A DNA stretch of 64,000 nucleotides from Candidatus Nomurabacteria bacterium (GTDB lineage Bacteria > Patescibacteriota > Saccharimonadia > JAGOAT01), in NCBI GenBank assembly GCA_020639315.1, contig JACKGM010000001.1:374767-438766 (forward strand), given 5' to 3'. Position 1 is the first letter of the stretch, and every line of letters begins with the position of its first letter. Positions 9,669 to 63,391 of the stretch are shown here, piece by piece. The translations under genes were made by a program, and so were the position numbers. Under the pieces are notes generated by a model. The model saw only the letters and a list, made by a program, of their open reading frames with translations. It was not told the DNA's origin and made no database searches.

Positions 9669-9705
9669 TATATCATCAAATACGAAAGTCGGATAAAATA
9701 AGGGC

Positions 9706-18928: not shown

Positions 18929-18962
18929 GAACAGGGTTGGATATTCAGTACTATCTTCCATT

Positions 18963-19123
18963 AACCCTGTTGCCATATAACCTCACGGCTTCAAAACTGC
19001 CATTTTTGCCCCAGACTAGCAAAACACTTCGCAGCGTAACTCCTGTTATGCTTTGTCGTGTTTTGCTATTCTGGAATAAAAATCATCAGCTTTGACCTCG
19101 CAAGTTTATATGGCAACAGGGTT
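18963..19123 (+). mobile_element. MITE-A copy 2 (161 bp)
   Basis: Nearly identical to 9447-9607, with the same terminal repeats. Flanks are ATT and ATA. Confidence 0.85.
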
Positions 19124-19228
19124 ATAGAAATTCGAAGGTTACGGGGAGGCGAGAGCGGAAGATGGAAAAAGGGACAGAAATTTGAGTTAGTGATAGGGAA
19201 GTGAGGTATAGTTACGGGTTTTGTTTGG

Positions 19229-32278: not shown

Positions 32279-32285
32279 GTGACTT

Positions 32286-32510
32286 GTCATCCTCCGAAAC
32301 CCCGCCCTCTCCTGTCATCCTCCGAAACCCGTCCCTTGTCTTGTCACCCTCCGAAACCCGAAGGGTTTACGGGGGATCCAGTATCCCTGTATTTACAGGT
32401 ATCCAATTCAAATATTGGATCTCCGGTATTACCCTCCGGGTAATCCAAAGATGACCCAACTCCTGTCATCCTCCGAATCCTCATAGAGGATTACGGGGGA
32501 TCCAGTATTC
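32286..32510. repeat. REP/BIME-like hairpin-repeat cluster 3
   Basis: Begins 8 nt after the leuS stop. Half units have GTC at 32286 and 32314. Full units are at 32343-32381 and 32465-32505, with an inverted unit at about 32415-32455. Confidence 0.9.
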
Positions 32511-32519
32511 GGTATTGTA

Positions 32520-32566
32520 TTGAGGGGTCTATAGCTGAAGGAACTCCAGTTTTAATTTTGGGCTAA
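32520..32566 (+). repeat. 47-nt conserved element, copy 2
   Basis: 45 of 47 positions identical to 22225-22271. Confidence 0.8.
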
Positions 32567-35721: not shown

Positions 35722-35823
35722 CAATGCCATTAACTTAAGACCTTGTAAGCTTTATTCAATGTACAAATCAAGCATGAATAGAACTCCAAAATATACTGAC
35801 CTTCCCTTAAGTTGATGGCATTG
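35722..35823 (+). mobile_element. MITE-C copy A (102 bp)
   Basis: Terminal repeats CAATGCCATTAACTTAAG ... CTTAAGTTGATGGCATTG. A second copy in inverted orientation lies at 63184-63285. Confidence 0.75.
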
Positions 35824-36218
35824 TCCCGTCATCCTCCGAAACTCGCCCCTTGTCTTGTCATCCTCCGAAACCCGTCCCTTGTCTTGTCATCCTCCGAAGT
35901 TCGGAGAACTTACGGGGGATCCAGTATTCGGGCATTTGCATTGTCATCCTCCGAATTATCCTTAAGAGAATTACGGGGGATCCAGTATTTCGCATTGTCC
36001 TGACTCCTAATACAAATACTGGATCTCCGGTATTTCCCCAAGGGGAAATCCGAAGATGACAAGAGGGGATGGATCTCCCATAAATCCTTACAGGATTTTG
36101 GAAAATGACCCACCTCCTGTCATCCTCCGAAACTCCGCCTTTCTCCTGTCATCCCCGAAACCTGTCCCTCCCCTGTCATCCTCCGAAACCCGAAGGGTTT
36201 ACGGGGGATCCAGTATTC
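35824..36218. repeat. REP/BIME-like hairpin-repeat cluster 4
   Basis: Phased half units, then full units (for example 35885-35925, 35943-35985 and 36174-36215) with inverted partners. Confidence 0.9.
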
Positions 36219-36286
36219 GGGATTTTGATTTATGTAAAAGTTAGGTATATAATCATAACTAGTTTAATAAAATAAAATGGAGGAAG

Positions 36287-36773: not shown

Positions 36774-38446
36774 TCATAGCACAGATTGCCTACTCTTATC
36801 AGATGTGATAGGGTAGAAACTGGGAAACTCAGGTTGCCCTGGTAGCTCAGTGGAAGAGCGTCTCCGTCCTAAGGAGAGCGTCGGGGGTTCGATTCCCTCC
36901 CAGGGTACCAAAGACGAACTTTTCGGGAAATTGTGGCGCGAATGCGCCGCTTTTTCTTTGGCTGCGCGCAGCGCAGACCAAAGGTTTTCAGAGGGGGGAG
37001 CAATTGCAGGGGCAGCCGTAGGCTGCGCCGTTTTGTTTTTTAGAAATAGGTTCAATCCTTCAATTTTTAGCAAAGCGTCCTTTTTCGCCTCAAGACTTCC
37101 ACTTTTTGCGGTTTCACAGATAGAATTAGCGAATTTTAGCCAATTGCGCATAGGTTCAACCCACGCATTGGCGGCAAGCGTTAGCTTGCCGATTTGTTCC
37201 TCTAGCGTTTTCTTGGCAGACATCAACTCGGCTTGTTTTGCCTTGTAGGTTGGCTTGTCAATGTCTTGGTCAAGGTAGCTATCAAGCAGGCGTTGTAGCT
37301 TGCCCTCTAGGTCGTCAATTTTGTTTCTCGCATCAGCGATAAACACGTCTGATGTTTCGCTGGCTTTTTGTTCGTCCTCGTCCAGCATACGCCCCAGCTC
37401 CGCCGCCCAGCTTTCAGGCAGGGCGTAGCCCTGCAATATGTTCGTGAGTTGCGCCGCTAACACTGGTTCGGTAGTCGGCGGCTCGGTACACCGCACCGCC
37501 TTATTTTTTCGGGTACACCTGTAATACACATATTCGTGTATATTGCCGTTTTTCTGGTACTTTATCTTTTTCTCGGCGGTAATCGCCATATTGCACATAC
37601 CGCAGGTCAACAAGCCGCAAAAGATTTGCGGCGCAGTTACACCCTTTTGCGGGTGGCAACGCTTGGCTATGGCGGCTTGCACGCGGTCAAACAATCGTTT
37701 TTCCATAATCGGCTTGTGCTTGCCCTCGTACACCTCGCCGTAATACCTGAAATGTCCGTAGTAAAACGGATTTACCAGCATATACTTGATTTGGTCTTTG
37801 CTCAAAGGCTTTTTACCTTTGGTCATAATGCCTTTTGTTTTCAAAAAGCCGGCAATATCTTGCAAGGTTTTGCCGCCCTCGGCGTACATCTCAAATGATT
37901 GTATGACAAGCGGTGCGCGCCGCTTGTCTACCACAATACTTTTGTGCCGTACATCGTTGATATACCCCAGAGGCGCAAGCCCTGGGTATTCTTTGCGCCG
38001 TACCTTTTGGCGCAAGCCTCGTTTTACGTTTTCGCTCAAGTTGTCCACATAATATTTGCCCTGGCTGAACGCCATAGACAACATAAACTTACCTTGCGAT
38101 GTGTTCTCAAACCAAAATGTCGGGAACTTCAACGCCACGAGTAACATTAGATCGAGAAAGTAAATGATATGCCCGCCGTCTACCGTATTTCTGGCTAGTC
38201 GGTCGGGGTGCCACGATAGCAAGCCGTTCGCCTCGCCAGCCTCAACACGCTTGAGCGTGTTGTTGAACTTTTTGCGCTCTGGCACTTTGGCGGACTTTTT
38301 TCTATAACCGTATCAACAATATACAAGTTATTGTCGGCTGCGTATTTACGCAGTTCGACTATCTGCGCCTCAACAGATAACACTTGCTTGTCCTCTACGT
38401 CGGTGCTTTTGCGCACATAGATGATGTATTTTTCTTGGTTTTGCAT
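36774..38446 (-). pseudogene. large serine recombinase, disrupted by a -1 frameshift in a homopolymer run
   Basis: The N-terminal ORF (38446-38195) has the catalytic motif YIIYVRKSTDVEDKQVLSVEAQ. The second ORF (38285-36774) has WHPDRLARN, a recombinase domain (YYGHFRYYGEVYEGKHKPI), a zinc ribbon (CGMC...YYRC...C) and a coiled coil. Adding one A to the A6 run (T6 at 38296-38301 on the + strand) restores ..VIEKKSAKVPERKKF.. in frame. The C-terminal ~45 codons are antisense to tRNA-Arg and the recX promoter. Confidence 0.8.
36836..36910 (+). tRNA. tRNA-Arg (CCU)
   Basis: GCCCTGG TA GCTC AGTGGAA GAGC G TCTCC GTCCTAA GGAGA GCGTC GGGGG TTCGATT CCCTC CCAGGGT A CCA. Pair 1:72 is G:U. A GC hairpin plus T-run at 36933-36955 follows. 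Confidence 0.8.
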
Positions 38447-38611
38447 ACCCGTACCCCTTTCTTAAACTCAAATAGCCGCCCTGTTGCACACAACTTCTGA
38501 GAAAACTCAAAAATTGTACAGGACGGCTATTCAAGCCAATGAAAAAGCTTTCTCGTACTAAAGTTGTGTGCAAGGTCTATTATACCAGAAACAAAGCCGC
38601 CAGCGGCGGCC

Positions 38612-39619
38612 CTAGATTCTATTTCCAAATGCAACCTTAGCTAAGTCTAACTCACTATTAGGGTTAGAAGCAAGCCAATCGTAAACCTCTTGAGGTGTAT
38701 GCCACCCTAGTCTTTTTCTAGGCTTGTTATTAAGCTCCCAGGCTATATCATCTAGCTCTTGTTGGGTTAGTCCCCTAATATCACTACGCTTAGGGAGATA
38801 CGCCCTAAGTTGTCCGTTGATATTCTCGTTAGCTCCTCTCTGCCAAGAGCTATATGGATCAGCAAAGTATACCTCTATACCAATAGCTTCTGTGATTCTC
38901 TCGTGTTTAGTGAATTCAGTACCATTATCAAAGGTGATGGTATGGGCAACAAGACCTCTAAGCCCGTCTATTACTGCATTGGCTGTCTCCTCTGCTGTCT
39001 TACGGTCTAGTTTAGTAAATACTACTAAACTACTAATTCTCTCGTTTACAGTGTTAATAGCTTGTTTATGTAGGTATAAGACACTATCACCCTCCCAATC
39101 TCCTAGTCTGGTTCTTTGATTTACAACTTCTGGTCTTTTATGGATAGATACTCGATTTGGTATCTTAGACCTATGAGATGACCTACCTTGATTCTTGGTT
39201 CTCTTTTTCTTGCCTTGTCTAAGATATTGATAGAGCTTTTCCTCTTTAGCCCAAGAGCTAGTATATATCCAGTTATAGATAGTTTCAGCAGAGACTGATG
39301 GGTGTCCTTCTTTCTTTAATCTACCTGAGATAGTTACTGGATTCCAGCCCTTCTGTAGGCAGTCTACTACTCGACTGCGTAAACGATGATTAACTGGGTT
39401 ATCTAAGATTGGTATCTGTCTAGATTCTTGTCGGTTCTCTTCATAGCTAGATTGAGCTATCCAGGTATGATAGATACCTTTACCATCAAGCCCTCTTTTG
39501 ATCTCTCTACCTATAGTAGATTTATCTTTACCAATTCGCTTTGCTATTTGATTATTTGTATAATTGTCTTGGAGTAAGACTTCTATCTTACCCCGTTCTG
39601 CAGCCGTTAGGTGACTCAT
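38612..39619 (-). CDS. IS30-family DDE transposase
   Basis: N-terminal HTH (LTAAERGKIEVLLQDNYTNNQIAKRIGKDKSTIGREIKRG) and a DDE core with the C-terminal signature SWQRGANENINGQLRAYLPK. Start taken at MSHLTAAERG (39619), which is inside the right inverted repeat. Confidence 0.85.
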   Translation of the reverse strand: MSHLTAAERGKIEVLLQDNYTNNQIAKRIGKDKSTIGREIKRGLDGKGIYHTWIAQSSYEENRQESRQIPILDNPVNHRLRSRVVDCLQKGWNPVTISGRLKKEGHPSVSAETIYNWIYTSSWAKEEKLYQYLRQGKKKRTKNQGRSSHRSKIPNRVSIHKRPEVVNQRTRLGDWEGDSVLYLHKQAINTVNERISSLVVFTKLDRKTAEETANAVIDGLRGLVAHTITFDNGTEFTKHERITEAIGIEVYFADPYSSWQRGANENINGQLRAYLPKRSDIRGLTQQELDDIAWELNNKPRKRLGWHTPQEVYDWLASNPNSELDLAKVAFGNRI

Positions 39620-39678
39620 GCAATCCTTTCGTTTAATTGTATGTATTATTCTAACGGTTGCATTTGATATTGGAACTA
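38613..39678 (-). mobile_element. IS30-family insertion sequence (about 1.07 kb) nested in the G+C-rich element
   Basis: Imperfect inverted repeats: TAGATTCTATTTCCAAATGCAACC (38613-38636) against the reverse complement of 39656-39678 (TAGTTCCAATATCAAATGCAACC). The G+C content is low, like the host, while both flanks are G+C-rich. Confidence 0.7.
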
Positions 39679-39762
39679 TGGAGCATTTCATTACAGGGGT
39701 AAATATGATACAACATAAACTTGCACGGAAGAAGCAATATAACGAAGGAGATTTTTGTAATT

Positions 39763-43912: not shown

Positions 43913-43917
43913 CAGAC

Positions 43918-43995
43918 TATAGCCCCCGAAAACAAACCCTGTACTTCTGACTGTATTTTATGGTCTATATAGCAAGTTAAAAACAAAACCAGACT
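43918..43995. repeat. mosaic of MITE-B terminal modules
   Basis: TATAGCCCCCGAAAACAAACCCTGTACTT... resembles the left end of 58740-58906. It is followed by TATAGCAAGTTAAAAACAAAACCAGACTTTT, which resembles the end of 50672-50764. It starts 6 nt after the stop codon. Confidence 0.7.
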
Positions 43996-44119: not shown

Positions 44120-44214
44120 AGACCTAGATTTGACAATCAAGCTTTACAACTTTGATTGCATAGTAATTTTAACATGGATTAGTGAACAAGTCTATTTGAA
44201 TTTAGTGATTGAAT

Positions 44215-44715
44215 ACAGAATACTGGATCCCCCGTAAGTTCTCCGAACTTCGGAGGATGACAATGCCTCCTCTCTTGTCATCTTCGGATTTCTCTAAGGG
44301 AGAAATACCGGAGATCCAGTATTTGAGTTGAACCCCAGAAATACAGAATACTAGATCACCCGTAAACCCTCTGGGTTTCGGAGGATGACAGAATAGGGGT
44401 GGAACTTCGGAGGATGACAGGAGTTGAGTCATCCTCGACAATTCCCGCCCTTCATTTGAAGGGAATTATCGGGGATCCAGAACTCTAGATTATGCACTGG
44501 ATTAACTCAGTTACTTTTAATGTTTATTATTTGTTTTCTGGATACCCAGAGCAAGCTCTGAGTATGACGGATGCAAATACGGGATACTGGATCACTCGTA
44601 AACCCTCTGGGTTTCGGAGGATGACAATGCCCTCTGTCGCCAAATCAAATTTCCACCCCCTCTTCGCGTCATCTTCCAAATTTCCGTAGGAAATTATGGG
44701 AGATCTAGTATTTGG
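44215..44715. repeat. REP/BIME-like hairpin-repeat cluster 5
   Basis: Multiple units. The ~107-nt composite at 44221-44327 recurs at 50333-50437, and the ~85-nt segment at 44508-44595 recurs at 58972-59056. Confidence 0.9.
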
Positions 44716-46033: not shown

Positions 46034-49000
46034 ATGAGACAAAAGTTGAATTTGTTTGGTAAATTAGGGGCAAGAAAGTCAATAATTACTTTGACCGGGT
46101 TAGGACTGGTCATAGCCGGAGTGGCCAATATTGCTTCAGTCAGCGGTCTTAATACCCAGACTAGCAATAATCAGACTCTGAGCAAGGATGTCAACCCGAT
46201 AGTCAGCGGTAACCCTGACTATACTGCCACCACTGTAGATGCTGGGGGCGAACTCCAGTGGATTATAGAATACGGTAATGATACGGGTAGTATAGTAGAC
46301 CCGGTCACAATCACTGATGATATTACTGGTGGTCAACAGTATGTAGCTGGTAGCTTAGATGTCCCAATTGGCTGGGAAGAAGGGTATTCAACTGATGCTG
46401 GCAATACGTATAGCCCAGTCGAGCCGGCTGCGAGTAGTGTCAACTCAATTCAAGCCACAGGCAATCGAATTACCTCTCCTGCTACAGGTATCAATGGTCT
46501 AATACCTGCCCCAGTGGCTTCGGTCAATCAGGATAAATCAGTCACCCATGGCGATGGTTTTGTCCCAATTGTTTACCGTAATGGAGATATCTATCGAGTT
46601 TACAATATTTATCATCACAATTCCTGGGAAGATGGGGACGCTACAGGTCTAATCAATTGTTTTGATGTCAATGTCGGTGACTATTGTGCTGATACTAGTT
46701 TTGATTATACTGGTGGCCTTTACACTCCCTTGACAGGAGTGGATGTCCAGACTTCTTGGTTCCCCGAGGGGCAACAGGCAGTGATAGATGGCAAGTTTTA
46801 TTATGCAGTTCATCAAGAGAATACCAGCAATGTCGGGGTAGGTTGTCTGGATTTGGCGACTGGTGTGGACTGTGCTACCAACCCATATACTCAGATCAGT
46901 AATAATGCTCCTTGGTATACCTATGCAGACGCAAGTAAGAATCACCATGCTGGTATTGAGGGGCCAGCGGTTGTCGGGGATGTGATTTATTTCTTTGTCC
47001 GTCATAGCGATGGTAAGCTCTATATGCATAGCTACAATACTACTACTGGAGTAGCAAACACGACAGGAGTTCAAATTGTTACCACTGGTACTTATGCTAA
47101 TAATGTTGCTGGGAATGAAGGCGAAATGTATGTACCGTATGAAGTCGTGGGAACAAAAATATACTTTACTATTAACTTCCAGATAAGTGATGATACTAAC
47201 GGTATCCAATATGCCGAATTTGGATGTTTTGATACAGCTAGCAATACTGCTTGTTCTGGTTTTTCTAGCACTAAACTATTACAGTTTTCTAACCAGAAAT
47301 CTAATGTGGGTACACAGACCTGGGTTTATTATTCAGTATTTGGACTCTATGATACATCTGGTAGTGTAGTGGCCGTATGTACTACTGCAAACCTAGAATT
47401 GATGCTTACTGGGTATATTAACTCGACCTTTACAGGATATCCAAAATCAGAATGTTATAGCCAATCAGGATCTAAATATAATGGATCAGAAATAGCTCCT
47501 TTTGCAACATTTTGGGAGAATGATGTCAACCCAAGTCTGCCAGCAACAGAAGGTACAAGTATAGGTGTCGATGGAGATGTCTTGGTGGAAGAGTTATATA
47601 TTGCTAATGGTACCCAAGGTATATCAGGTAATCGTACATATTTTTCAATTCGTACTACTGATCAATATGATAATGTTAATCCGTATGGAGCAGTAGCTTG
47701 TTATGACTTTACAACTCAGTCTGGTTGTGCCAACTTTGGTAATGGTGGACTGGCACAATTCCCATCAATCAATGGAGGTGCTACCAAAGACTATGGCTAT
47801 GACTATGATCAAGTCAGTGGCTGCATGTGGGGGCTAGGTGATGAAGGTTATCTCTGGAGTTTTGACGCTGAGACTGGTGCTAGCCCATGTAGCTCAATCT
47901 CAGAAACTATTCAGCTGGACCTCACCCCTGACAATTTCTACTGTGATGGACAAAGTGACAATTATATCCAAGGTTGGGATAGTCTGACTATCTTGGAGCC
48001 TGGAACTGGTGTTCCTAGTACAGTCAGCTACACAGTGACTGTCTATGATGTCAACAATAACCCCATATCTGGGTATCAAAATGTAGCGCCAGATGCCAAC
48101 AATCAGCTAGACCTCAGCGCGATTGATAGTACGACCTACTCGAGCTTGAGAGTAGAAGTGACAGCTAGCGATAGCAATAATGGTACCAGCTGGACCAATA
48201 CTATACCAGTGATGCTGACATTTAGCGCTACTCACAATCCACAGATTTGTTATAGCACAATCGTGCCTGATAATTGTGATATTTCTTCAGCTGATAATAC
48301 TGCAGTAGTTGATGCCGATGGGACTATCATCAGTGTCAGTGATAGTATTGAGATAGTCAATCAGTCCAATTGTGATCCTGGTAGAATCGGCAATCAGGTC
48401 TGGAATGATCTTGATCATGACGGGGTATTTGACCCAGGCGAGCCCGGGATACCTGGAGTGACGATCAAGCTCTACCAAGGTATTTGTGCAGATCACACCA
48501 CTTCTTCTACCTCTATGGCTACCACCACTACCGCTTCAGATGGCACTTATTACTTCAATAGTCTACCAGTCGACCAGAATTATTATGTGGTAGTAGACAG
48601 ATCTAGTAGCAGTGTATTGACCAATTATACCAATTCTACTGGTCCCGATCATACTGCTGATGGCAACTCCAAGTCTGAAGATTGTTACGAGGTCAGTTTG
48701 ACTACCGCTAGTCCCAGCAACCTGACCGCAGATTTTGGTTACTATGCTGGACGGATTGGTAATCAAGTCTGGGTAGATTCAGACCGAGATGGTATTTTCG
48801 ATGCTGGAATTGAGAATGGAGTCGCTGGAGTATCAATCGATCTTTATCAAGGTACTTGTGACCAACACACTACTAGTTCAACAATTCTTGCCACAGAGGC
48901 AACGGCTTCAGACGGTACATATTACTTTGATGGTTTAGCTTTGGATCAATCGTACTATGTGATTGTAGATCGGTCTGGAAGCAGTATTGCTAACTATCAA

Positions 49001-50056
49001 CACATTATGGGTACAGATCAGACAGCAGATAATTATTCCAAGGATGAGACTTGCTATGAAGTCAATCTGACTACTGCAAACCCAGAGAACTTGACTGCAG
49101 ACTTCGGCTATTATGCTTCTGGGATCGATATCGCAGTAACCAAGGAGATTGTAGGACAGACTGATGGAGTGACTCTGAGTAGAGGGCAGGAGTTTACTTA
49201 TCGCATTACTGTGACCAATCTTGGCCCAGATGAAGCTAAGAATATATTCGTTAAGGATACCTTCCCAGATGGAATTACTGTCGCTCAAGCTGCTATTAGC
49301 TGTGCCAAGCAAAATCCAGTAGATACTTGTACCATTGCTGATGCTCCTGCGGATGGGTATTCAGGGATTAATATTGAAAATCAAAATCTTGCACTACTGG
49401 TCAATCAAAAGATTGTAATAGATGTAGTAGCTACTGTTGATCAGGAAGCATTTGGCACTGTTACTAATAGCGTAGAGGTCGGAGAGACAGGCAGGGAAGA
49501 GGTGACCCTAGTCAACAATAAAGATGATGTCAGCTTCGTAGTGCCAAAAGAGATTGATCTAGCGATCACCAAGACTCATGACCCAGCACAACCAACTGCT
49601 GGAGGTATTGTGACCTATACTATTGTAGTAGTCAACAATGGTCCAGATGCTGTCGAAGGGGCTGTGATGAATGATAGTGTGCCTGAGGTAGTCACTGCAG
49701 TCAGTTGGACTTGTACTGCCAGCGCTGACGCGGTCTGTATCGATACTAGCGGCAGTGGCAATCAGATCAATGCTACTAGCAATATGCTTAGTGGTGCTTC
49801 GGTCAACTATTCAGTAGTAGGAACATTGTCTGCTAGCGCTAGCGGGGAGATAGTCAATCAGGCTTCGGTCACAGCACCCGAAGGATATATCGAGACTACC
49901 TTAGAGAACAATACTGATTCGACCGCTTTTAGTATTGCTCCTCCAGCTAGTCTGCCTCAGACTGGTATTTCTAAAAACTTGAGTGTAGTCGGCTTATTTA
50001 GTCTCTTGCTCGGTCTAGCAATCGTCTATAGGCAGCTTAGACCATTGGCTGCTTAG
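46034..50056 (+). CDS. large LPXTG-anchored surface protein/adhesin (1340 aa)
   Basis: N-terminal signal/anchor. Two SdrD-B/Cna-B-like repeats start GRIGNQVW.D.D.DG.FD (about 48380 and 48750). Two DUF11-like modules follow (D[IL]A[IV]TK...GPD). The C-terminus is LPQTG, a hydrophobic span and RQLR. Confidence 0.85.
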   Translation: MRQKLNLFGKLGARKSIITLTGLGLVIAGVANIASVSGLNTQTSNNQTLSKDVNPIVSGNPDYTATTVDAGGELQWIIEYGNDTGSIVDPVTITDDITGGQQYVAGSLDVPIGWEEGYSTDAGNTYSPVEPAASSVNSIQATGNRITSPATGINGLIPAPVASVNQDKSVTHGDGFVPIVYRNGDIYRVYNIYHHNSWEDGDATGLINCFDVNVGDYCADTSFDYTGGLYTPLTGVDVQTSWFPEGQQAVIDGKFYYAVHQENTSNVGVGCLDLATGVDCATNPYTQISNNAPWYTYADASKNHHAGIEGPAVVGDVIYFFVRHSDGKLYMHSYNTTTGVANTTGVQIVTTGTYANNVAGNEGEMYVPYEVVGTKIYFTINFQISDDTNGIQYAEFGCFDTASNTACSGFSSTKLLQFSNQKSNVGTQTWVYYSVFGLYDTSGSVVAVCTTANLELMLTGYINSTFTGYPKSECYSQSGSKYNGSEIAPFATFWENDVNPSLPATEGTSIGVDGDVLVEELYIANGTQGISGNRTYFSIRTTDQYDNVNPYGAVACYDFTTQSGCANFGNGGLAQFPSINGGATKDYGYDYDQVSGCMWGLGDEGYLWSFDAETGASPCSSISETIQLDLTPDNFYCDGQSDNYIQGWDSLTILEPGTGVPSTVSYTVTVYDVNNNPISGYQNVAPDANNQLDLSAIDSTTYSSLRVEVTASDSNNGTSWTNTIPVMLTFSATHNPQICYSTIVPDNCDISSADNTAVVDADGTIISVSDSIEIVNQSNCDPGRIGNQVWNDLDHDGVFDPGEPGIPGVTIKLYQGICADHTTSSTSMATTTTASDGTYYFNSLPVDQNYYVVVDRSSSSVLTNYTNSTGPDHTADGNSKSEDCYEVSLTTASPSNLTADFGYYAGRIGNQVWVDSDRDGIFDAGIENGVAGVSIDLYQGTCDQHTTSSTILATEATASDGTYYFDGLALDQSYYVIVDRSGSSIANYQHIMGTDQTADNYSKDETCYEVNLTTANPENLTADFGYYASGIDIAVTKEIVGQTDGVTLSRGQEFTYRITVTNLGPDEAKNIFVKDTFPDGITVAQAAISCAKQNPVDTCTIADAPADGYSGINIENQNLALLVNQKIVIDVVATVDQEAFGTVTNSVEVGETGREEVTLVNNKDDVSFVVPKEIDLAITKTHDPAQPTAGGIVTYTIVVVNNGPDAVEGAVMNDSVPEVVTAVSWTCTASADAVCIDTSGSGNQINATSNMLSGASVNYSVVGTLSASASGEIVNQASVTAPEGYIETTLENNTDSTAFSIAPPASLPQTGISKNLSVVGLFSLLLGLAIVYRQLRPLAA

Positions 50057-50063
50057 AGGCACG

Positions 50064-50321
50064 ATGTCCAAGCGTTCTATTCGTGATTCTGACCTAGATA
50101 TGATAGTCAAGATTGCCCTCTATCAGATCTTGGGGTTGGTGTGGATAGTCAATAGTGGTGGGTATCGAATATTCCCTATAGGACTAATTGTCGGCTACTT
50201 TTTGACCAAACATGAAAAGCTTCGTCTCAACCAAAGGCTGGAGTTTGCTCCTCTAGTAATGGGGGCTACCTTGGGGCTGATTGGGATTGGTGGGATTTAC
50301 CTGACTTTGCCTTGGTTTTAA
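50064..50321 (+). CDS. small two-TM membrane protein (hypothetical)
   Basis: ORF 7 nt after the adhesin stop, with two hydrophobic spans. Confidence 0.4.
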   Translation: MSKRSIRDSDLDMIVKIALYQILGLVWIVNSGGYRIFPIGLIVGYFLTKHEKLRLNQRLEFAPLVMGATLGLIGIGGIYLTLPWF

Positions 50322-50326
50322 AAAAT

Positions 50327-50645
50327 GCGGGATACTGGATCCCCCGTAAGTTCTCCGAACTTCGGAGGATGACAATGCCTCCTCTTGTCATCTTCGGATT
50401 TCTCCAAGGGAGAAATACCGGAGATCCAGTATTTGAATTTAATACCTGTAAATGCAGAGATACTGGATCCCCCGTAAACCCTCTGGGTTTCGGAGGATGA
50501 CAACTCACAATGCGGGATACTGGATCCCCCGTAAGTTCTCCGAACTTCGGAGGATGACAGGAGAGGGGTGGAGTTTCGGAGGATGACAATGCAGTGGCAG
50601 TTTTGGAGGATGACAGGGCAAGGGACAGGTTTCGGAGGATGACAA
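50327..50645. repeat. REP/BIME-like hairpin-repeat cluster 6
   Basis: Starts 6 nt after the stop codon. It ends with four roughly 28-nt phased ..TTCGGAGGATGACA.. half units at 50553-50645. Confidence 0.9.
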
Positions 50646-50671
50646 GCCTTGCTACCACTAGATAGTTTTGA

Positions 50672-50764
50672 TATAGCAAGCCCAAACCAAAACCAGACAA
50701 TTTGAGCTGTACTATAGACTCTAGAGTTGGGTCAAAAGTCTGGTTTTGTTTTTAACTTGCTATA
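50672..50764 (-). mobile_element. short MITE-B-related element (93 bp)
   Basis: TATAGCAAGCCCAAACCAAAACCAGAC ... GTCTGGTTTTGTTTTTAACTTGCTATA. This is the inverted counterpart of 60435-60540. Confidence 0.7.
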
Positions 50765-50790: not shown

Positions 50791-52155
50791 CTAGAGCTTG
50801 AATTGGTTGGCCAGGTAGGCAATCAGTTGATCTAGTTTGACTCTAGTCTGCTCCATACTATCACGATCCCGAACCGTAACCGCCTGGTCCTCAAGCGACT
50901 CAAAGTCAACGGTTACACAAAGGGGTGTGCCGATCTCATCTTGCCTACGATACCTTTTGCCTATACTTTGGGTCTCATCGTATTCAGACATTAGCCCGGC
51001 TTTGGTAATTTCATTAAATAGTTGTTTGGCGAGGTCTATTAATGGTTGCTTTTTGCTGAGGGGGAGAACTGCCACCTTGATTGGGGCAATCACCTTGGCA
51101 AGCTTTAGGACAACCCTAGTCTCGCTATTGACCTCCTCTTCTGTGTAGGCATTGGTCAAGGCGGCCATCATTAGCCTACCGACTCCGACTGAGCTCTCGA
51201 TCACATTGGGGACAAAACGGCTGGAGTCAGTTGGGTCAAAGTAGCTCAGATCTTGGCCACTCTCCTTAATATGGCTACTGAGGTCGAAGTCTGTTCGATT
51301 GTGAGTACCCCAGAGCTCCTTCTTGCCATGAGGGAAATGAAAATAGATATCATGGGCAGCAGCTGCATAGTGGGCTCTCTCGTCATCTCCATGTTCATGC
51401 CAACTCAGACGTTCGGGGTCAATCCCCATCCTGGAAACCAGAAAGTCCCAGGCAAATTCTCGCCATTCTTGGTAGCTGTCAGCTTGAGTGTCGGGATGGA
51501 TGAAGTATTGCATTTCCATCTGTTCGAGCTCACGCACTCGGAAGATAAAATCACGCGGATTAATCTCATTGCGAAAAGCTTTACCGACCTGGGCGATACC
51601 AAATGGTAGCTTGGAGCGAGTAGTTTCTCTGACCAGCTCATAGTTGGTAAAGATTGACCCAGCTGTTTCTGGACGCAGGTAGACAGTACTCTCACGATCT
51701 TCAAGAGGACCTAGGTAGCTCTTCATCATCATATTAAATAATCTCGGCTCAGTTAGGGCATCAGCCTGACAGCTAGGGCAGACTTTACCATTGAGTAAAG
51801 TGGTCAATTGTTCAATATCACTAGAATCAACCTCAGCTAGATGATCAGCACGAAATCTCAGCTTGCAATTCTTGCAATCGACCAAGGGGTCATTGAACCC
51901 TTCGATGTGTCCACTGGCCTTCCAGAGTCGCGGATGTTGGATGATAGCTCCATCGATCCCATAAACATTAATCCTTTCTCGCACCATGGCTTGCCACCAG
52001 AGAGCTTTGATATTGTTGACTAGCTCTACTCCATAGGGACCATAGTCCCAAAATCCACTCAGACCTCCATAAATCTGACTAGATTGAAAGACAAAACCTC
52101 GGCGTTTAGCAAGGTTGGTAATAGTGGCTAGGTCGATGGTAGTGTAGTTGCTCAT
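50791..52155 (-). CDS. glyQS: glycine--tRNA ligase (class II, dimeric GlyQS type)
   Basis: LAKRRGFVFQSSQIYGGLSGFWDYGPYG, FRNEI.PR..IFRVREF.QME and the other class II motifs. Start set at MSNYTT (52155). The 59-codon upstream extension of the ORF overlaps the divergent gene and the promoter. Confidence 0.9.
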   Translation of the reverse strand: MSNYTTIDLATITNLAKRRGFVFQSSQIYGGLSGFWDYGPYGVELVNNIKALWWQAMVRERINVYGIDGAIIQHPRLWKASGHIEGFNDPLVDCKNCKLRFRADHLAEVDSSDIEQLTTLLNGKVCPSCQADALTEPRLFNMMMKSYLGPLEDRESTVYLRPETAGSIFTNYELVRETTRSKLPFGIAQVGKAFRNEINPRDFIFRVRELEQMEMQYFIHPDTQADSYQEWREFAWDFLVSRMGIDPERLSWHEHGDDERAHYAAAAHDIYFHFPHGKKELWGTHNRTDFDLSSHIKESGQDLSYFDPTDSSRFVPNVIESSVGVGRLMMAALTNAYTEEEVNSETRVVLKLAKVIAPIKVAVLPLSKKQPLIDLAKQLFNEITKAGLMSEYDETQSIGKRYRRQDEIGTPLCVTVDFESLEDQAVTVRDRDSMEQTRVKLDQLIAYLANQFKL

Positions 52156-52188
52156 AGAGTAATTATAACATGCTATAATTACTCTATG
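52153..52188. promoter_or_regulatory. palindromic bidirectional extended -10 promoter serving two divergent leaderless genes
   Basis: CATAGAGTAATTATA-acatgc-TATAATTACTCTATG has perfect 15-nt arms. Each strand reads TGnTATAAT-tactct-ATG. Confidence 0.65.
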
Positions 52189-52707
52189 AGCAAAAATAAT
52201 ACTACCAGCCAGGTTTTTCCAGACTATTATCAATTGTTTGGCATAGACCCTGGTTCTAGTAAGGGTCAGATCAAGGATCGGTATAAAGAATTGAAAAGTC
52301 AGTATGGGATTGAAGGTGATAAGTCCGAGCAATCAGTAGAGAAAGTAATCGAAATCAATCAAGGATTTAGAGTATTGGGAAATCAAAAGCTTAGACCACT
52401 TTACGATCAATACTATCAAAAGTATCGAGGATTGTCTGGTAGTGTCAAATATAATGAACAAATTCAGAATTTGACTTATGAGATGAATCTGGCACTCGCT
52501 ACTAAAGCGGTCAAGGAAAAGATTGCTTTAGGCGCTGTATTTTTAGTCATAGGACTGGGAGTATTGATTGGTGGGTATCTCAACGCTTCGAGTAATGATG
52601 GAAACTATATCTTACCTTATGGCTCAATTATTTGGGGTGGTTGGCAGATGATAGCTGGTATTCGTCAGTATCGCAATATAAGGTCGGGCACTAGAGCAAC
52701 TGAATAA
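52186..52707 (+). CDS. J-domain-like membrane protein lacking the HPD motif
   Basis: DYYQLFGIDPGSSKGQIKDRYKELKSQY, followed by GIE where HPD is expected, then ..FRVLGNQKLRPLYDQ. Two C-terminal TM spans. Confidence 0.5.
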   Translation: MSKNNTTSQVFPDYYQLFGIDPGSSKGQIKDRYKELKSQYGIEGDKSEQSVEKVIEINQGFRVLGNQKLRPLYDQYYQKYRGLSGSVKYNEQIQNLTYEMNLALATKAVKEKIALGAVFLVIGLGVLIGGYLNASSNDGNYILPYGSIIWGGWQMIAGIRQYRNIRSGTRATE

Positions 52708-58148: not shown

Positions 58149-58724
58149 ATGAATTTAAAACAATTTTTTCAGGGTAGGGTTACAGGGGTAGTATTGAGTG
58201 TATCTGGGGGGCTTGGGATACTAGCAGCAATGCAGTTGGCTCTCGATCAATTGCATTTGCTTGAAGACCCAGGCTTTGTCCCGGTCTGTTCAATCAATCA
58301 GACTGTTAGTTGTACACCCGTGATCGAATCTTGGCAGTCCTCAGTCTTTGGCTTTCCAAACTCATACTTGGGGCTAGTTAGTTTTGCGATGATACTAGCA
58401 GTCGGGGTGGCCTTGATCGGCAAAGTCAAATTCCCTAGATGGTATATGCTGATATTTAATCTAGGTACTCTTGGTGGATTCATCATGGTTCACTGGTTGG
58501 CTGGGAGTGTGATGTTTGACATTGGCAAGCTCTGCTTGTGGTGCGTACTAGTTTGGATTTGTACTGGCGCTAGCTTTGTCTATACTTTGGCTTACAATTT
58601 TGCCGAGGATAATCTAAGGCTCGGTAGTCAAAAGTTTCGAGACGCCTTTGTCGAGAATCAACTTTCAATTCTTCTAGCCTGGTATTTATTGATGGCCGGG
58701 CTGATAGCCTGGAAGCTGTTCTAG
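58149..58724 (+). CDS. vitamin K epoxide reductase (VKOR) family protein
   Basis: Loop cysteines CSINQTVSC, the active-site CLWC (CxxC) in a TM helix, and 4-5 TM spans. Confidence 0.75.
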   Translation: MNLKQFFQGRVTGVVLSVSGGLGILAAMQLALDQLHLLEDPGFVPVCSINQTVSCTPVIESWQSSVFGFPNSYLGLVSFAMILAVGVALIGKVKFPRWYMLIFNLGTLGGFIMVHWLAGSVMFDIGKLCLWCVLVWICTGASFVYTLAYNFAEDNLRLGSQKFRDAFVENQLSILLAWYLLMAGLIAWKLF

Positions 58725-58739: not shown

Positions 58740-58906
58740 TATAGCCCCCGAAAAACAAAACCTGTACTTTTGACTGTATCTTATAGTCTATAACTGCCAC
58801 TATTGCTCCTCACCATATCTACGGATATGATTTGTCACAATAGCGACAATTCTAGATCGATAATCTATCACCCAAAACAAACAGGTTTTGTTTTACTGGG
58901 GCTATA
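58740..58906 (+). mobile_element. MITE-B (167 bp, about 26-bp imperfect terminal inverted repeats)
   Basis: TATAGCCCCCGAAAAACAAAACCTGT ... ACAGGTTTTGTTTTACTGGGGCTATA, matching at 23 of 26 positions. Internal palindromes include CATATC-tacg-GATATG. The right ~119 bp recur at 60539-60657. Confidence 0.8.
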
Positions 58907-58971
58907 TAGCCCTAACACTTTGTCTTGCTATAAGTCAGGGTGTTGGGTCTATGGATAATTGGTTAGGTAAC

Positions 58972-59435
58972 CCAGTTACTTTTAATATTTATTGTTAGTT
59001 TTCTGGATACCCAGAGCAAGCTCTGAGTATGACGGATGCAAATACGGGATACTGGATCCCCCGTAAGTTCTCCGAACTTCGGAGGATGACAAGACAAGGG
59101 ACGGGTTTCGGAGGATGACAATAACCCTGTTGCCATATAAACTTGCGAGGTCAAAGCTGATGATTTTTATTCCAGAATACCAAAACACGACAAAGCATAA
59201 CAGGAGTTACGCTGCGAAGTGTTTTGCTAGTCTGGGGCAAAAATGGCAGTTTTGAAGCCGTGAGGTTATATGGTAACAGGGTTAATGCCCTCCTCCTGTC
59301 ATCTTCCAAATTTCCGCCCACTTCGCGTCATCTTCCAAATTTCTGTAGGAAATTATGGGAGATCCACCCTCTCCTCTGTCATCTTCGGATTACCCGAAGG
59401 GTAATACCGGAGATCCAGTATTTGAATTAGACTCA
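58972..59435. repeat. REP/BIME-like hairpin-repeat cluster 7 (interrupted by MITE-A copy 3)
   Basis: Units at 59005-59035 and 59050-59089, half units up to 59120, then units at 59298-59435. Confidence 0.9.
59123..59283 (-). mobile_element. MITE-A copy 3 (161 bp, inverted relative to copies 1 and 2)
   Basis: Same sequence in reverse orientation, with one mismatch in one terminal repeat (GGTAAC). Flanked by AAT (59120-59122) and AAT (59284-59286). Confidence 0.85.
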
Positions 59436-59462
59436 GGAAATGCAGGAATACTAGAAATTAGG

Positions 59463-60392
59463 CTAGACAGGTCGTAAAGTGCCAAAGAAAATTTGCCAGG
59501 CTAGGGCAGATTTGGCTAGCAAGCTTAGTAAGATAAAGACCTTCTCACCATAGATATAATCATTCCAACGACCTATTTTCTTATACTGAAGATACATATT
59601 AAGTGCAAAACAATTGAAGAAAATAAAGATCGAAAGATAGATATAGTAGACAAAAGTCGGGATCATCCCATTGCCACTGGAGCTTGAACCCCAGAAATAA
59701 ACCCCGATTACAACCCAAGGTACAATCCCTGCTAGGATACCAATCTTGAAGCTTAGCCAATCGACTACCCTCTTGCCTTGATTGATTTTTTCCATAGATA
59801 GACCGAGCAAATTCATGATCATGGTCAGGATAAAGACCATTAGAAGAGTAGAGAGATCTTCTATGCCAGCAAGCATAGCGATCGCTAGCATCATCGTCGA
59901 AGCACTGAGGCTATACTCAATAAATCTTGTTGGATTGGTAGAAAGTCTAAGATTGGCTTGATACGGATCGGGTCTTATTAGTCCGAGGTAGAAGTGGAAT
60001 CCACTTGAAAGTAAGAGGAATATTATAATTAGTCCGACTAGGGGTATTTCAAATAAGGTTTTAGAGTCGATTACTAGTGAGCTAGTCGCGAGATCAAAAG
60101 TCTGATAAGAGGTGGTGACAGGTAGGCTAAAGTCTGTAGCTAGCACAATCATGACAATGGCCTGCAGAAGATGGATTGTCCCCATAATGATATTAAAAGC
60201 TACTAATTTGTCTAGACTCGACTTACGCAAAATCCCTGCATCTCCAGGATCGCCTCCGAAGTCCAGAACTACTTTTTCTGCTATCAACGATGCATCAGCA
60301 TCGCTTCCATCAGATAAAAGAATTTCTGAATCTTCGGAAGGCAAGCCTGGAGTATCCGAGGTTTTGCGTAAGTCGAGTAAAAGTTTTTGCAT
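59463..60392 (-). CDS. heliorhodopsin with an N-terminal acidic extension
   Basis: The motifs align with the prototype heliorhodopsin 48C12 as I recall it: FN..G..HLLQ...M..L...DF.LP.T..Y; R..EYSLS.S.M; GI.AGIVPW; FVY.I..S.F.FFN.FAL..YLQYK..G.W..Y..GE....LSL.AKSALAWQIF.GTL.P. The retinal-binding Lys lies in SLLAKSALAWQ (about K294). Confidence 0.85.
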   Translation of the reverse strand: MQKLLLDLRKTSDTPGLPSEDSEILLSDGSDADASLIAEKVVLDFGGDPGDAGILRKSSLDKLVAFNIIMGTIHLLQAIVMIVLATDFSLPVTTSYQTFDLATSSLVIDSKTLFEIPLVGLIIIFLLLSSGFHFYLGLIRPDPYQANLRLSTNPTRFIEYSLSASTMMLAIAMLAGIEDLSTLLMVFILTMIMNLLGLSMEKINQGKRVVDWLSFKIGILAGIVPWVVIGVYFWGSSSSGNGMIPTFVYYIYLSIFIFFNCFALNMYLQYKKIGRWNDYIYGEKVFILLSLLAKSALAWQIFFGTLRPV

Positions 60393-60434
60393 ATTATTAC
60401 CTTTGTTTTAATTAAAATTTTCTATTGTAAATAT

Positions 60435-60657
60435 TATAGCATACCCCAAACAAAACCAGACTTTTGACCCAACCCTAGAGTCTATCAAGCTAGTTTTCTA
60501 TAGTACAGCTCAAATTGTCCGGTTTTGTTTTGAGCTTGCTATAACTGCCACTATTGCTCCTCACTATATCTACGGATATGATTTGTCACAATAGCGACAA
60601 TTCTAGATCCATAATCTATCACCCAAAACAAACAGGTTTTGTTTTATGGGGGCTATA
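60435..60657 (+). mobile_element. composite of a short MITE-B-related element (60435-60540) and the right ~119 bp of MITE-B (60539-60657)
   Basis: TATAGCATACCCCAAACAAAACCAGAC...GTCCGGTTTTGTTTTGAGCTTGCTATA, then ATAACTGCCACTATTGCTCC...ACAGGTTTTGTTTTATGGGGGCTATA. The latter matches 58788-58906 closely. Confidence 0.75.
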
Positions 60658-60805
60658 TCACTTTTTACTTTACATTTGGATCAATAAAGTGTAAGATTAT
60701 TTGCGAAACAGTGAAGTATCTGACTCCTTGGTACCAAAAGTGTCAAAAGTGTCCAGTAACAAACGGTTTTATAAGTAATAAATTAATAAGAAAGGTTTTA
60801 GTCAG

Positions 60806-61078
60806 ATGGTTACTAAATTATATGTTGGTGGTATTCCTTACTCTGCTACAGAGCAAGAATTAGAAGAGTTCTTTAGTGTAGCAGGTAGCGTAGTCAGTGC
60901 GAGAATTATTACAGATCGTGAAACAAATCGTTCAAAAGGATTTGGTTTTGTCGAAATGTCCACCCAAGAAGAGGCTCAACAAGCAATCACAATGCTTCAT
61001 GACAAAGATATGGGTGGTCGTAAGATTACTGTTAACGAAGCTCGACCCAAAGAAGATCGACCAGCTAGACGTTTCTAG
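60806..61078 (+). CDS. RRM-type RNA-binding protein
   Basis: RNP-2 motif LYVGGI and RNP-1 motif KGFGFVEM. 90 aa. A possible hairpin terminator lies at 61105-61130. Confidence 0.85.
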   Translation: MVTKLYVGGIPYSATEQELEEFFSVAGSVVSARIITDRETNRSKGFGFVEMSTQEEAQQAITMLHDKDMGGRKITVNEARPKEDRPARRF

Positions 61079-61154: not shown

Positions 61155-62966
61155 ATGGTAGAAAACAAGATTCGTAATATAGCAGTAATCGCCCATGTCG
61201 ATCATGGTAAGACTACTTTGGTCGATGCTTTTTTGAAGCAGACCAAAGTCTTTCGTGATAATCAGGCCGAGATGGGTCAGGCTTTGATTATGGATTCTAG
61301 TGATCAAGAGCGTGAGCGAGGGATTACTATCACAGCCAAGATTACGGCAGTAAAGTTTGATGACACCCAGATAAATATTATCGACACGCCCGGACACGCT
61401 GATTTTGGTGGAGAGGTAGAGCGAACACTCCATATGGCTGATGGCTGCCTCCTAATCGTAGATGCTCAAGAGGGTCCGATGCCTCAGACCAAGTTTGTGC
61501 TCGAGAAAGCTTTTGTGGCTGGACTTCGTCCAATCGTCGTAATTAACAAGATCGATAAACCGGCCGCTAGGGTGTCTGAAATAGTAGATGAGATCGGGGA
61601 CTTATTTTTGGAGCTTGCTACTGATGATAGTCAGCTCGATTATCCGGTCTATTATGCAATTGGTCGCGATGGTAAGGCTTGGAAAGAATTACCAAATGAT
61701 CCGAGTGAGCCAGCCGATATTCAGCCAATCTTACGAGCAATTATTGAGCATATTCCTGCTCCACAAACTTCCGAAGGCGGATTTCAGTTGTTGGCTACCT
61801 CACTTGAGTGGGATGATTATCAAGGCAAGTATGTGATCGGCAAAGTAGAGCGAGGTCAGCTCAAGGCTGGTGAAATCTTAAGCTTGGTAGACCAATCTGG
61901 AGTAGTGGGTAGTGGCTATCGAGTCGATAAGATTTATGGATATCAAGGTCTAGATAAGGTGATCAAGGATCAGGCTAGTGCAGGTGAGATCGTTGCGGTC
62001 ACTGGTATCAAGGATGCCAAGATTGGCCAGACCCTGACTACGCCAGATCAACCGGAAGCCTTGGAAGCAATCGACTTGGAGCCACCGACTTTGAGTATTT
62101 ATCTCGGACCCAATACCTCTCCCTTTAAAGGCCTAGAAGGCGAATTTACTACTTCGAGACAAATTGGGGATCGATTGAAGCGAGAATTGGAGACTAATAT
62201 CGGCTTGATAGTAGAGGATGATGGGGTTGGCTTCACCGTTAAGGGTAGGGGTGAATTGCACTTGAGTGTACTGATGGAGACAATGCGTCGAGAAGGGTTT
62301 GAGTTTGAGATCGGCAGACCCAAGGTAGTGTATAAAGTGCAGGATGGTCAGAGTCTGGAGCCAGTAGAGCTAGTGACTGTCGAGGTACCAGTCGAACATA
62401 TTGGAGTAATCCAGTCTGAGTTTGGTAGTCGTAAGGCTGAACTTCTAGAACAGGTCAACCTTCGTGATAATTTGGTCAGGCTAGTCTACAGGATTAGTAC
62501 TCGTAATCTAATCGGCCTAAGGAGTCAATTGATTACAGCTACCAAAGGTACCTTGGTAATGAATAGTTTGATGGATGGTTATCAGCCTAAGACAGCTGAG
62601 CTGGCATCAAAACGCAACGGAGTCTTGATCGCTTGGGAGCAGGGGGAGAGTCGGGCTTATGCTCTGAGTAATGCTGAGGCTAGAGGTGTATTGTTCGTCG
62701 GGCCAGGGGTCAAGCTATATCAGGGGCAGATTATTGGACTTGCCAATCAGTCGGGGGATTTGGATATCAATGCTTCTAAGTCCAAGCAACTGACCAATAT
62801 GCGGAGCAAGAGTAGTGATGGTACGATCAAGTTGACTCCAGCGATTGAGATGAGCCTCGAACAGTCAATGGACTTTTTAAACGATGATGAGCTCTTGGAA
62901 ATCACACCTAGCTCACTGAGGCTGAGAAAACGAATTTTGGATAAAGGGCTTCGTAAGAAGAAGTAG
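61155..62966 (+). CDS. typA: translational GTPase TypA/BipA
   Basis: IRNIAVIAHVDHGKTTLVD, DTPGHADFGGEVER, NKIDK. 603 aa with the BipA-type C-terminal domain. Confidence 0.9.
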   Translation: MVENKIRNIAVIAHVDHGKTTLVDAFLKQTKVFRDNQAEMGQALIMDSSDQERERGITITAKITAVKFDDTQINIIDTPGHADFGGEVERTLHMADGCLLIVDAQEGPMPQTKFVLEKAFVAGLRPIVVINKIDKPAARVSEIVDEIGDLFLELATDDSQLDYPVYYAIGRDGKAWKELPNDPSEPADIQPILRAIIEHIPAPQTSEGGFQLLATSLEWDDYQGKYVIGKVERGQLKAGEILSLVDQSGVVGSGYRVDKIYGYQGLDKVIKDQASAGEIVAVTGIKDAKIGQTLTTPDQPEALEAIDLEPPTLSIYLGPNTSPFKGLEGEFTTSRQIGDRLKRELETNIGLIVEDDGVGFTVKGRGELHLSVLMETMRREGFEFEIGRPKVVYKVQDGQSLEPVELVTVEVPVEHIGVIQSEFGSRKAELLEQVNLRDNLVRLVYRISTRNLIGLRSQLITATKGTLVMNSLMDGYQPKTAELASKRNGVLIAWEQGESRAYALSNAEARGVLFVGPGVKLYQGQIIGLANQSGDLDINASKSKQLTNMRSKSSDGTIKLTPAIEMSLEQSMDFLNDDELLEITPSSLRLRKRILDKGLRKKK

Positions 62967-63335
62967 CTATAGCCCCCGTAAGCTCTTTGAGCTTCGGAGG
63001 ATGACAATGCCCTTTTTGTGTCATCTTCCAAATTTCCTTTAGGAAATTATGGGAGATCCAGTATTTGGATTTGACATCAGGGCAATACGGTAATACTGGA
63101 TCCCCCGTAAGTTCTCTGAACTTCGGAGGATGACAGAAGAGTAGTAGGTTTCGGAGGATGACAATGTCCTCCGCCTGTCATCTCAATACCATTAACTTAA
63201 GGAAAGGCCAGTATCTTTTGACATCCTGTTAAAGCTTGATTTGTACATTGAATAAAACTTGCAAAAGCTTAAGTTAATGGCATTGGCCTGTCATCTTCGG
63301 ATTACCCGGAGGGTAATACCGGAGATCCAGTATTT
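62967..63335. repeat. REP/BIME-like hairpin-repeat cluster 8 (interrupted by MITE-C copy B)
   Basis: Starts at the base after the typA stop with CTATAGCCCCCGTAAG.... Units at 62972-63005, 63019-63060, 63093-63135 and 63289-63330. Confidence 0.9.
63184..63285 (-). mobile_element. MITE-C copy B (102 bp)
   Basis: CAATACCATTAACTTAAG ... CTTAAGTTAATGGCATTG, inverted relative to 35722-35823. It is flanked by an 11-nt direct repeat, GCCTGTCATCT (63173-63183 and 63286-63296). Confidence 0.75.
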
Positions 63336-63391
63336 AAATTATTAGGCAAATGATGTAAGCTAAAGAGGTATTATATAGCTGGAGGGATAGA

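Follow-up and report, generated by a model that had tools for sequence, protein, structure and literature searches.

A 64,000-nt stretch of contig JACKGM010000001.1 from a Candidatus Nomurabacteria bacterium (the window, to which all positions below refer) carries a heliorhodopsin (HeR) gene on its minus strand. The encoded protein has an acidic segment of 55 residues near its N-terminus. This segment is an insertion of residues 6–60 between residues 5 and 6 of the ancestral protein and not an N-terminal domain. The inserted DNA is a 163-nt palindrome that recurs elsewhere, between genes and inside unrelated genes. Very probably, a canonical 254-aa HeR gene received it in frame, after codon 5, as a non-autonomous mobile element. 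The gene and the parts of the insertion are listed below.

59463..60392, minus strand: HeR coding sequence as it stands today, with the insertion, 309 aa
60380..60392, minus strand: ancestral 5′ end ATG CAA AAA CTT T (Met1-Gln-Lys-Leu and base 1 of Leu5); the N-terminus is canonical once the insertion is removed
60378..60379, minus strand: 5′ TA of the apparent target-site duplication, codon 5 positions 2–3; flanks match in 7 of 7 copies
60215..60377, minus strand: 163-nt palindromic mobile element CTCGACTTACGCAAAA...TTTTGCGTAAGTCGAGTC, codons 6–59 and base 1 of codon 60; recognized by its hairpin, copies elsewhere and covariation
60213..60214, minus strand: 3′ TA of the apparent target-site duplication, codon 60 positions 2–3; matching flanks
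59463..60212, minus strand: remaining ancestral coding sequence, Asp61 (ancestral residue 6) to stop; seven transmembrane (TM) helices and the extracellular loop 1 (ECL1) beta-hairpin, from Pfam/NCBIfam, AlphaFold2 (AF2) and Foldseek

Identity of the heliorhodopsin

The ATG-to-stop open reading frame (ORF) at 59463–60392 encodes a product identical to MCB9834759.1, "heliorhodopsin HeR [Candidatus Nomurabacteria bacterium]", from a 445,775-bp contig. The gene is an ordinary, previously annotated heliorhodopsin from a Candidate Phyla Radiation (CPR, Patescibacteria) bacterium. HeRs have already been published from freshwater CPR bacteria (PMC9166423), which resemble this one in host type (CPR, monoderm-like) and in the absence of retinal synthesis genes, here across the window.

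A first-pass annotation, made by a model from the sequence alone, had called the protein a heliorhodopsin, and profile searches agree. PF18761 matches over the full model (aa 64–306, model positions 2–242 of 242, E 2.5e-86, 289 bits, cut-off 26.7). The NCBIfam equivalog NF038020, "heliorhodopsin HeR", matches full-length at 300 bits (cut-off 100). All motifs quoted in that annotation are present: AFNIIMGTIHLLQ, EYSLS, GIVPW, FFNCFALNMYLQYK and SLLAKSALAWQ. Residues 61–309 align to the solved structures of Thermoplasmatales HeR (TaHeR; 8e-69) and 48C12 (1e-51). The TM3 counter-ion Glu (E107 in 48C12, E108 in TaHeR) is E159 here; it occupies the column of TaHeR position 108, in which the E108D mutant chain 7clj shows Asp. 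Lys294, in TM7, shares its column with the Schiff-base Lys of TaHeR and 48C12, and S290-L-L-A-K294 forms the SxxxK motif. The two positions that the annotation had proposed as counter-ion and retinal attachment site are therefore homologous to the known ones.

In a 47-sequence alignment (46 relatives and the window HeR), E159, H133, S290, K294 and Q269 are invariant, and H74 is nearly invariant. The window HeR keeps the consensus residue at all 55 invariant and 29 nearly invariant columns. The AF2 model has a core predicted local distance difference test (pLDDT) score of 93–98, with the ECL1 beta-hairpin strands (89–100 and 105–117) above 93. Foldseek aligned the model to 6is6, 7u55 and 6su3 with TM-scores of 0.90–0.92 and root mean square deviations of 2.1–2.6 Å. 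With TaHeR (6is6) and 48C12 (6su3) the protein shares the full-length profile match, SxxxK, the counter-ion Glu, the conserved His residues, seven helices and the long ECL1 beta-hairpin; identity to TaHeR is ~48% at a TM-score of 0.9. All HeR-defining features that could be tested are present. By homology, an inverted topology with a cytoplasmic N-terminus, retinal binding and a slow photocycle would be expected. Other HeRs in the searched collections differ in having no 55 extra residues between positions 5 and 6.

The extra segment in relation to other heliorhodopsins

The extra acidic segment described in the first-pass annotation is real: residues 6–60 hold 12 Asp/Glu against 5 Lys/Arg. 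AF2 predicts residues 11–56 to be disordered (pLDDT 44–50). TSDTPGLPSEDSEILLSDGSDADASLIAEK would be a tryptic peptide of the insert-encoded segment.

The closest HeR relatives are 57–59% identical and 251–258 aa long. After the self-match, the best of 2376 HeR hits is 59% identical and covers the core only. None of the best 120 of these hits covers the tail, and the tail peptide searched alone retrieved no other HeR, so the segment is not conserved among the relatives examined. The three closest relatives have in-frame stop codons 4–13 codons upstream of their starts, and none has a hairpin at its 5′ end (z −0.4 to −2.8, vs −10.2 here). No conserved synteny with the closest HeRs was found; those genes adjoin UvrB, UvrD or unrelated genes.

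Additions on the cytoplasmic N-terminal side of the HeR core are published, with at least 10 extension variants (MORN-HeR, Znf-HeR, ntv1–ntv10; PMC8612252). As described there, they consist of folded domains, or of extensions conserved within a lineage, for which a signalling role has been proposed. The window HeR tail, apparently unlike them, is a passenger of a mobile element, predicted to be disordered, and is placed after residue 5, not upstream of Met1. Two further HeRs (P0115, P0116) have ~65-aa N-terminal tails that are strongly basic and K/T/S/A-rich, with a low complexity like that of histone H1; neither tail is related to the acidic insert.

Anatomy of the element and its insertion site

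Seven DNA copies of the element, including that in the HeR gene, align without gaps over exactly 163 nt, and none has a transposase ORF. The ends read CTCGAC...GTCGAGT(C/A) in all seven. The terminal ~16–19 nt pair almost perfectly in every copy, forming terminal inverted repeats. On either side of each of the 7 copies stands the same dinucleotide (TA..TA in five, AA..AA in two). We read these pairs as a 2-bp target-site duplication, which is well supported and short of proven. In size, terminal inverted repeats, target-site duplication and multiplicity of contexts, the insert behaves like a miniature inverted-repeat transposable element (MITE).

Each insertion adds 163 + 2 = 165 nt, or 55 codons. 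All four genic copies are exactly 163 nt long, start at codon position 1 and have matching 2-nt flanks; removing the element and one flank leaves an open frame and a canonical N-terminus in each. For the HeR gene, removal restores ATG CAA AAA CTT TTA GAC AAA TTA GTA GCT TTT AAT, or MQKLLDKLVAFN, and a protein of 254 aa. The restored MQKLLDKLVAFN aligns gap-free to the relatives MNKKLQKLLRFN and MSKKIEKLLSFN, and its 12 residues from Met1 to the invariant Asn are the mode among the 46 relatives. ATG 60392 is therefore the ancestral start, as well as the correct one, and the choice of this upstream Met in the first-pass annotation holds.

Copies of the element elsewhere

A search with a 62-aa insert peptide found a 72-aa ORF in another assembly (86% identity) and, on the Nomurabacteria contig itself, the 72-aa "hypothetical protein H6792_00430" (62% identity). 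A search with the opposite-strand peptide found two further copies. At the DNA level, window positions 60213–60384 are 92% identical to positions 589–760 of locus L014, and the copies at loci L022 and L023 are 92% and 71% identical to the window copy. Identity falls to background directly outside the element block, and the flanks are unrelated. No HeR is present at these three loci. L014 also carries the window's commonest short repeat and for that reason is taken to come from a related organism.

Altogether, the element occurs at six other DNA loci, three intergenic and three in frame inside genes. Of the intergenic copies, one comes after the stop codon of ychF, another adjoins that of rpiB, and the third has unrelated ORFs on both sides. 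The TAG with which rpiB stops at L022 is provided by the element's end.

A profile of three element peptides was scored against 1.84 billion representative proteins. It matched the glutamate racemase MCA9349896.1 (Ca. Saccharibacteria), whose N-terminal GG...PYG segment is split by the module. It also matched a sortase, with the module just before the membrane anchor; a P-loop NTPase, with the module directly after codon 3; and a 547-aa protein of unknown family. The HeR, racemase, sortase and NTPase genes use the same element frame and are open after its removal. The in-frame copies are as follows.

L024, 660-822: in-frame element copy
L025, 1211-1373: in-frame element copy
L027, 447-609: in-frame element copy
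Proteins of the in-frame copies: P0127, P0138, P0132, P0134

The repeat proteins P0125, P0129 and P0131 (DUF11/DUF7507, ankyrin etc.) were discarded as false positives, as only a short acidic stretch matched. A metagenome scan with a 20-mer of the element returned only matches to the 20-mer itself.

Hairpin, covariation and peptide composition

The extension DNA is bracketed by a 40-nt inverted repeat. Between −38 and +203 the mRNA forms a single long hairpin (−97.3 kcal/mol, z = −10.5; 0 of 200 shuffles are as stable). The element hairpin itself is about −95 kcal/mol, with z between −10 and −13 across foldings. Its arms are only 75–80% complementary.

In the consensus hairpin of the seven copies, 92.4% of cells are in standard pairs. 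Both sides have changed in 25 of 66 pairs, against 10.4 ± 2.1 when columns are shuffled (as many in 0 of 500 shuffles) and 2–9 in slid-partner controls. The conserved feature is a nucleic-acid hairpin maintained by compensatory changes. The window copy and L014 differ at 14 positions, of which 5 are synonymous and 9 non-synonymous by a manual alignment count (rough dN/dS, the non-synonymous to synonymous ratio, ~0.6). Seven of the 10 differences at paired positions keep pairing through G-U. Among diverged copies the middle of the peptide varies freely.

Read from the sequence, third codon positions in one arm face third positions in the other, and first positions face second positions. Codons are thereby mirrored between arms: GAN (Asp/Glu) with TCN (Ser), AAN (Lys) with TTN (Leu), and CGN with CGN. 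This register accounts for the D/E/S-rich composition and for the near-repeat of LDLRKTS and ILRKSSL at the two ends.

Expression context

Three features bear on where translation of the HeR gene starts.

60433..60441, minus strand: extended −10-like box TGCTATAAT, ending 40 nt upstream of ATG 60392; overlaps a terminus of the palindromic element at 60434-60544 (I9)
60399..60403, minus strand: weak Shine-Dalgarno-like AAGGT, 6 nt upstream of ATG 60392; duplex −3.9 kcal/mol, window median −2.8
60228..60230, minus strand: in-frame TTG, codon 55, considered as an alternative start and not ancestral; inside the element and the hairpin stem

The leader between the TGCTATAAT box and ATG 60392 is A/U-rich. 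A formal promoter scan missed the box, which has no −35 match, and the number of sites in a formal sigma-70 scan of the window did not exceed that expected from shuffles. The hairpin begins at +15, immediately beyond the ribosome initiation footprint. Initiation at the ATG should thus be possible, and elongation would have to unwind the stem.

Interpretation

We propose that a small non-autonomous transposable element, a 163-nt imperfect palindrome, inserted itself into the TA of codon 5 (TTA), which became duplicated. One frame of the element is stop-free and 165 nt are added with the duplication, so that the gene stayed open and now encodes MQKLL-(55 aa)-DKLVAFN.... The protein would still be made from the ancestral ATG 60392. 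Its 55 extra residues would be carried as a passenger, an acidic and disordered loop at a permissive cytoplasmic site immediately ahead of TM1, and their D/E/S/G-rich composition would be a by-product of the palindrome. The retinal-binding core would work as in other HeRs, as a slow-photocycle light sensor that uses all-trans retinal from an external source. Translation would probably be lowered, and not abolished, by the −95 kcal/mol mRNA hairpin that begins 15 nt downstream of the ATG.

Several points weigh against this account. No orthologous empty site was found in the searched collections, where the nearest HeR is only 59% identical, and the analysis turned up no autonomous transposase whose ends match. 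The element's last base before the 3′ flank changes together with that flank (C-TA vs A-AA), which is why the 2-nt duplication falls short of proof. A hairpin this strong could silence the gene in practice, and translation of the tail is a prediction. The codon usage of the insert is gene-like (only 0.9% of intergenic windows score as high), and the same frame is open in all copies, including the diverged one at 71% identity. Because of this codon usage and open frame, some selection may keep the element translatable, and the tail may have been exapted.

The first-pass annotation had proposed a cytoplasmic, partner-binding or regulatory module. In its broader form, that the acidic tail evolved or was exapted for HeR partner binding or regulation (a mobile-element origin being allowed), we consider this improbable. 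The tail lies on the proposed partner-binding side, other HeRs have N-terminal fusions (PMC8612252), the frame is open with gene-like codon usage, and LLSDGSDADAS is identical in three copies. However, the same peptide is encoded by the intergenic copies and by the insertions in the racemase, sortase and NTPase genes, so its conservation reflects the element and not HeR function. The absence of the tail from the best HeR hits, its retrieval of no other HeR, the rough dN/dS between the window copy and L014, the predicted disorder and the fact that the covariation belongs to a nucleic-acid hairpin all argue in the same direction. As a dedicated HeR module the tail is not upheld, the DNA being a dispersed palindrome.

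Effective inactivation of the gene, with the hairpin after the start codon blocking translation and the HeR becoming a pseudogene, is unlikely. MITEs commonly disable dispensable genes in reduced genomes (PMC10969869), and here a hairpin of z −10.5 begins at +15 with no retinal genes nearby. Against this, the frame is intact over 309 codons, the consensus is kept at every invariant and nearly invariant column, and the model core is of high confidence. Three other hosts, including essential-type genes such as that for glutamate racemase, carry the element in frame and are still open.

A true start at the in-frame TTG of codon 55 (60230) is very unlikely. It would give a 255-aa HeR, a canonical product length, with the upstream 54 codons as a structured 5′ leader, and GGAGA lies 10 nt upstream with an anti-Shine-Dalgarno duplex of −6.4 vs −3.9 kcal/mol at ATG1. 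But TTG and GGAGA both belong to the mobile element (GGGATTTTGCGT), are present in intergenic copies as well, and are buried in the −95 kcal/mol stem. The insertion splits the ancestral N-terminus, whose first five codons begin at ATG 60392. That ATG is preceded by the TGCTATAAT box, by a leader that is A/U-rich and unstructured and by AAGGT, and no promoter-like site lies between the two starts. TTG55 was rejected as true or ancestral start. A local origin of the palindrome, by inverted duplication of the gene's 5′ end or by an amplification or assembly chimera, has a vanishingly small probability. Inverted chimeras are a known artefact of whole-genome amplification, and within the window the palindrome at first matched only itself. 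Its arms are too imperfect for a fresh chimera, and the six other DNA copies, from independent assemblies, share the same imperfect arms; these refute a local origin, which was rejected.

The mobile-element reading can be taken further, if speculatively. The element family may have adapted to life inside genes, supplying disordered acidic loops or tails to CPR proteomes, and the HeR tail or hairpin may have been co-opted for tuning expression or partners. The 55-codon length, the stop-free frames in both orientations and the gene-like codon usage point that way, and we hold this extension to be possible, though doubtful. If true, the Rickettsia strategy of the "protein-coding palindrome" would have been invented twice independently, here in another lineage of reduced, host-dependent bacteria.

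Comparison with known elements

The insert appears closest in function to Rickettsia palindromic elements (RPE), the best-known case of palindromic repeats that sit in frame and encode a peptide. In the account of Ogata 2000 and 2002 given in PMC10969869, RPE insert in frame into unrelated genes. As far as that account describes them, RPE are palindromes of ~150–165 nt dispersed in genomes of reduced, host-dependent bacteria, and they share with the present element a recurrent in-frame residence in unrelated genes, a conserved encoded peptide and seemingly tolerated sites. The phylum differs (here CPR, labelled Nomurabacteria/Saccharibacteria); the likeness is functional and no membership is claimed. 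The element also differs in its clear duplication of 2 nt at the flanks and in its constant length, 163 nt, which with the duplication makes exactly 55 codons.

Bacterial MITEs (Tc1/IS630-type TA-targeting elements, ERIC, BOX and those of Anabaena; PMC10969869) are likewise small, without a transposase ORF and with terminal inverted repeats. They also show TA or AA dinucleotide duplication, multiple contexts and occasional translational (in-frame) fusions. Here, in contrast, the entire element is one hairpin rather than merely two terminal repeats, and no autonomous partner was identified.

No description of such elements in CPR bacteria was found in the literature searched. The family thus appears to be an undescribed CPR/Patescibacteria analogue of RPE, frame-neutral at 163 + 2 nt, with a covarying hairpin and residence in at least four unrelated genes. 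It offers a way to study the remodelling of proteins by mobile elements in ultra-small genomes. For rhodopsin biology it is a caution, as an apparent new N-terminal module can be selfish DNA; extension variants need a check at the DNA level before signalling readings are made. The insertion also serves as a natural experiment on what the HeR N-terminus, on the cytoplasmic side, can tolerate.

Neighbouring genes and other features of the window

The neighbours of the HeR gene are those named in the first-pass annotation.

58149-58724: VKOR
60806-61078: RRM protein
61155-62966: TypA/BipA
from 63392: truncated Pyr_redox_2 (NDH-2-like) gene

Among ~50 window ORFs, none matched a carotenoid or retinal family (SQS_PSY, phytoene desaturase, lycopene cyclase, Blh); about 10 ORFs matched no family at all. 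A sub-threshold Lycopene_cycl match of the NDH-2 fragment covers only the Rossmann motif. The annotation was thus right that the window lacks retinal synthesis genes, but its open question about the retinal source has precedents (PMC9296517) and is not novel. Saccharibacteria that carry rhodopsins have no blh and need only seconds to bind retinal from outside, and TaHeR likewise takes external retinal, in organisms without a retinal pathway (PMC9296517). A window without retinal genes is expected from the published CPR retinal dependence.

Direct repeats of 120 nt (97% identical, 1751 nt apart) bracket the HeR gene at 58740-58906 and 60539-60658. They are parts of a 167-nt palindromic element TATAGCCCCC with 26-nt ends TATAGCCCCCGAAAAACAAAACCTGT, with related stretches at 43917-43969, 50672-50764 and 60434-60544, and may mark a mobile cassette or a recombination hotspot. 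Another family, "MITE-A", is a 163-nt full palindrome TAACCCTGTTGCC...GGCAACAGGGTTA of about −79 kcal/mol at 9446-9607, 18959-19125 and 59121-59287. Its three copies are 98.8–99.4% identical; its length equals that of the HeR insert, and the two share no sequence similarity. MITE-A was probably mobile recently. Together with the other palindromic families in the window, these near-identical copies indicate that palindromic elements are active in the genome. Kinship of the HeR insert with MITE-A, the 167-nt TATAGCCCCC element, I9 or I10 was rejected (global alignments, z −1.2 to +1.3 against shuffles).

Short repeats form eight intergenic clusters (9080-9670, 18560-19125, 32280-32520, 35820-36225, 44200-44714, 50320-50650, 58960-59462 and 62964-63344). 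TTCGGAGGATGACA occurs 30 times and ATACTGGATCCCCCGTAA 14 times in the 64 kb, often 28–29 nt apart, and many copies form small hairpins. The window's most abundant 18-mer gave 7 single, chance-level hits in unrelated taxa among 185,579 species-representative genomes. An Rfam scan of the window at gathering thresholds found only 5 tRNAs.

TGCTATAAT or a close variant lies ~7 nt upstream of many ATGs without a Shine-Dalgarno sequence (11856, 15428 minus, 36766 minus, 42386, 52186 and 57232 minus), a pattern that suggests widespread leaderless mRNAs in this organism. At 52139-52202, a palindrome of 32 + 32 nt with no spacer and 84% complementarity overlaps the TGCTATAAT box of the DnaJ-domain gene at 52186 and may be an operator.

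Two serine-recombinase ORFs (regions 1815-2722 and 36774-39691) overlap or abut tRNA-Met (2647-2722) and tRNA-Arg (36836-36910), and an IS30-like HTH_38/rve ORF occupies 38612-39691; integrated elements may have left these ORFs behind. Positions 46034-50056 encode a predicted surface protein of 1340 aa that has SdrD_B, DUF11 and SpaA-like domains, and a sortase gene lies in the same window at 22611-23198.

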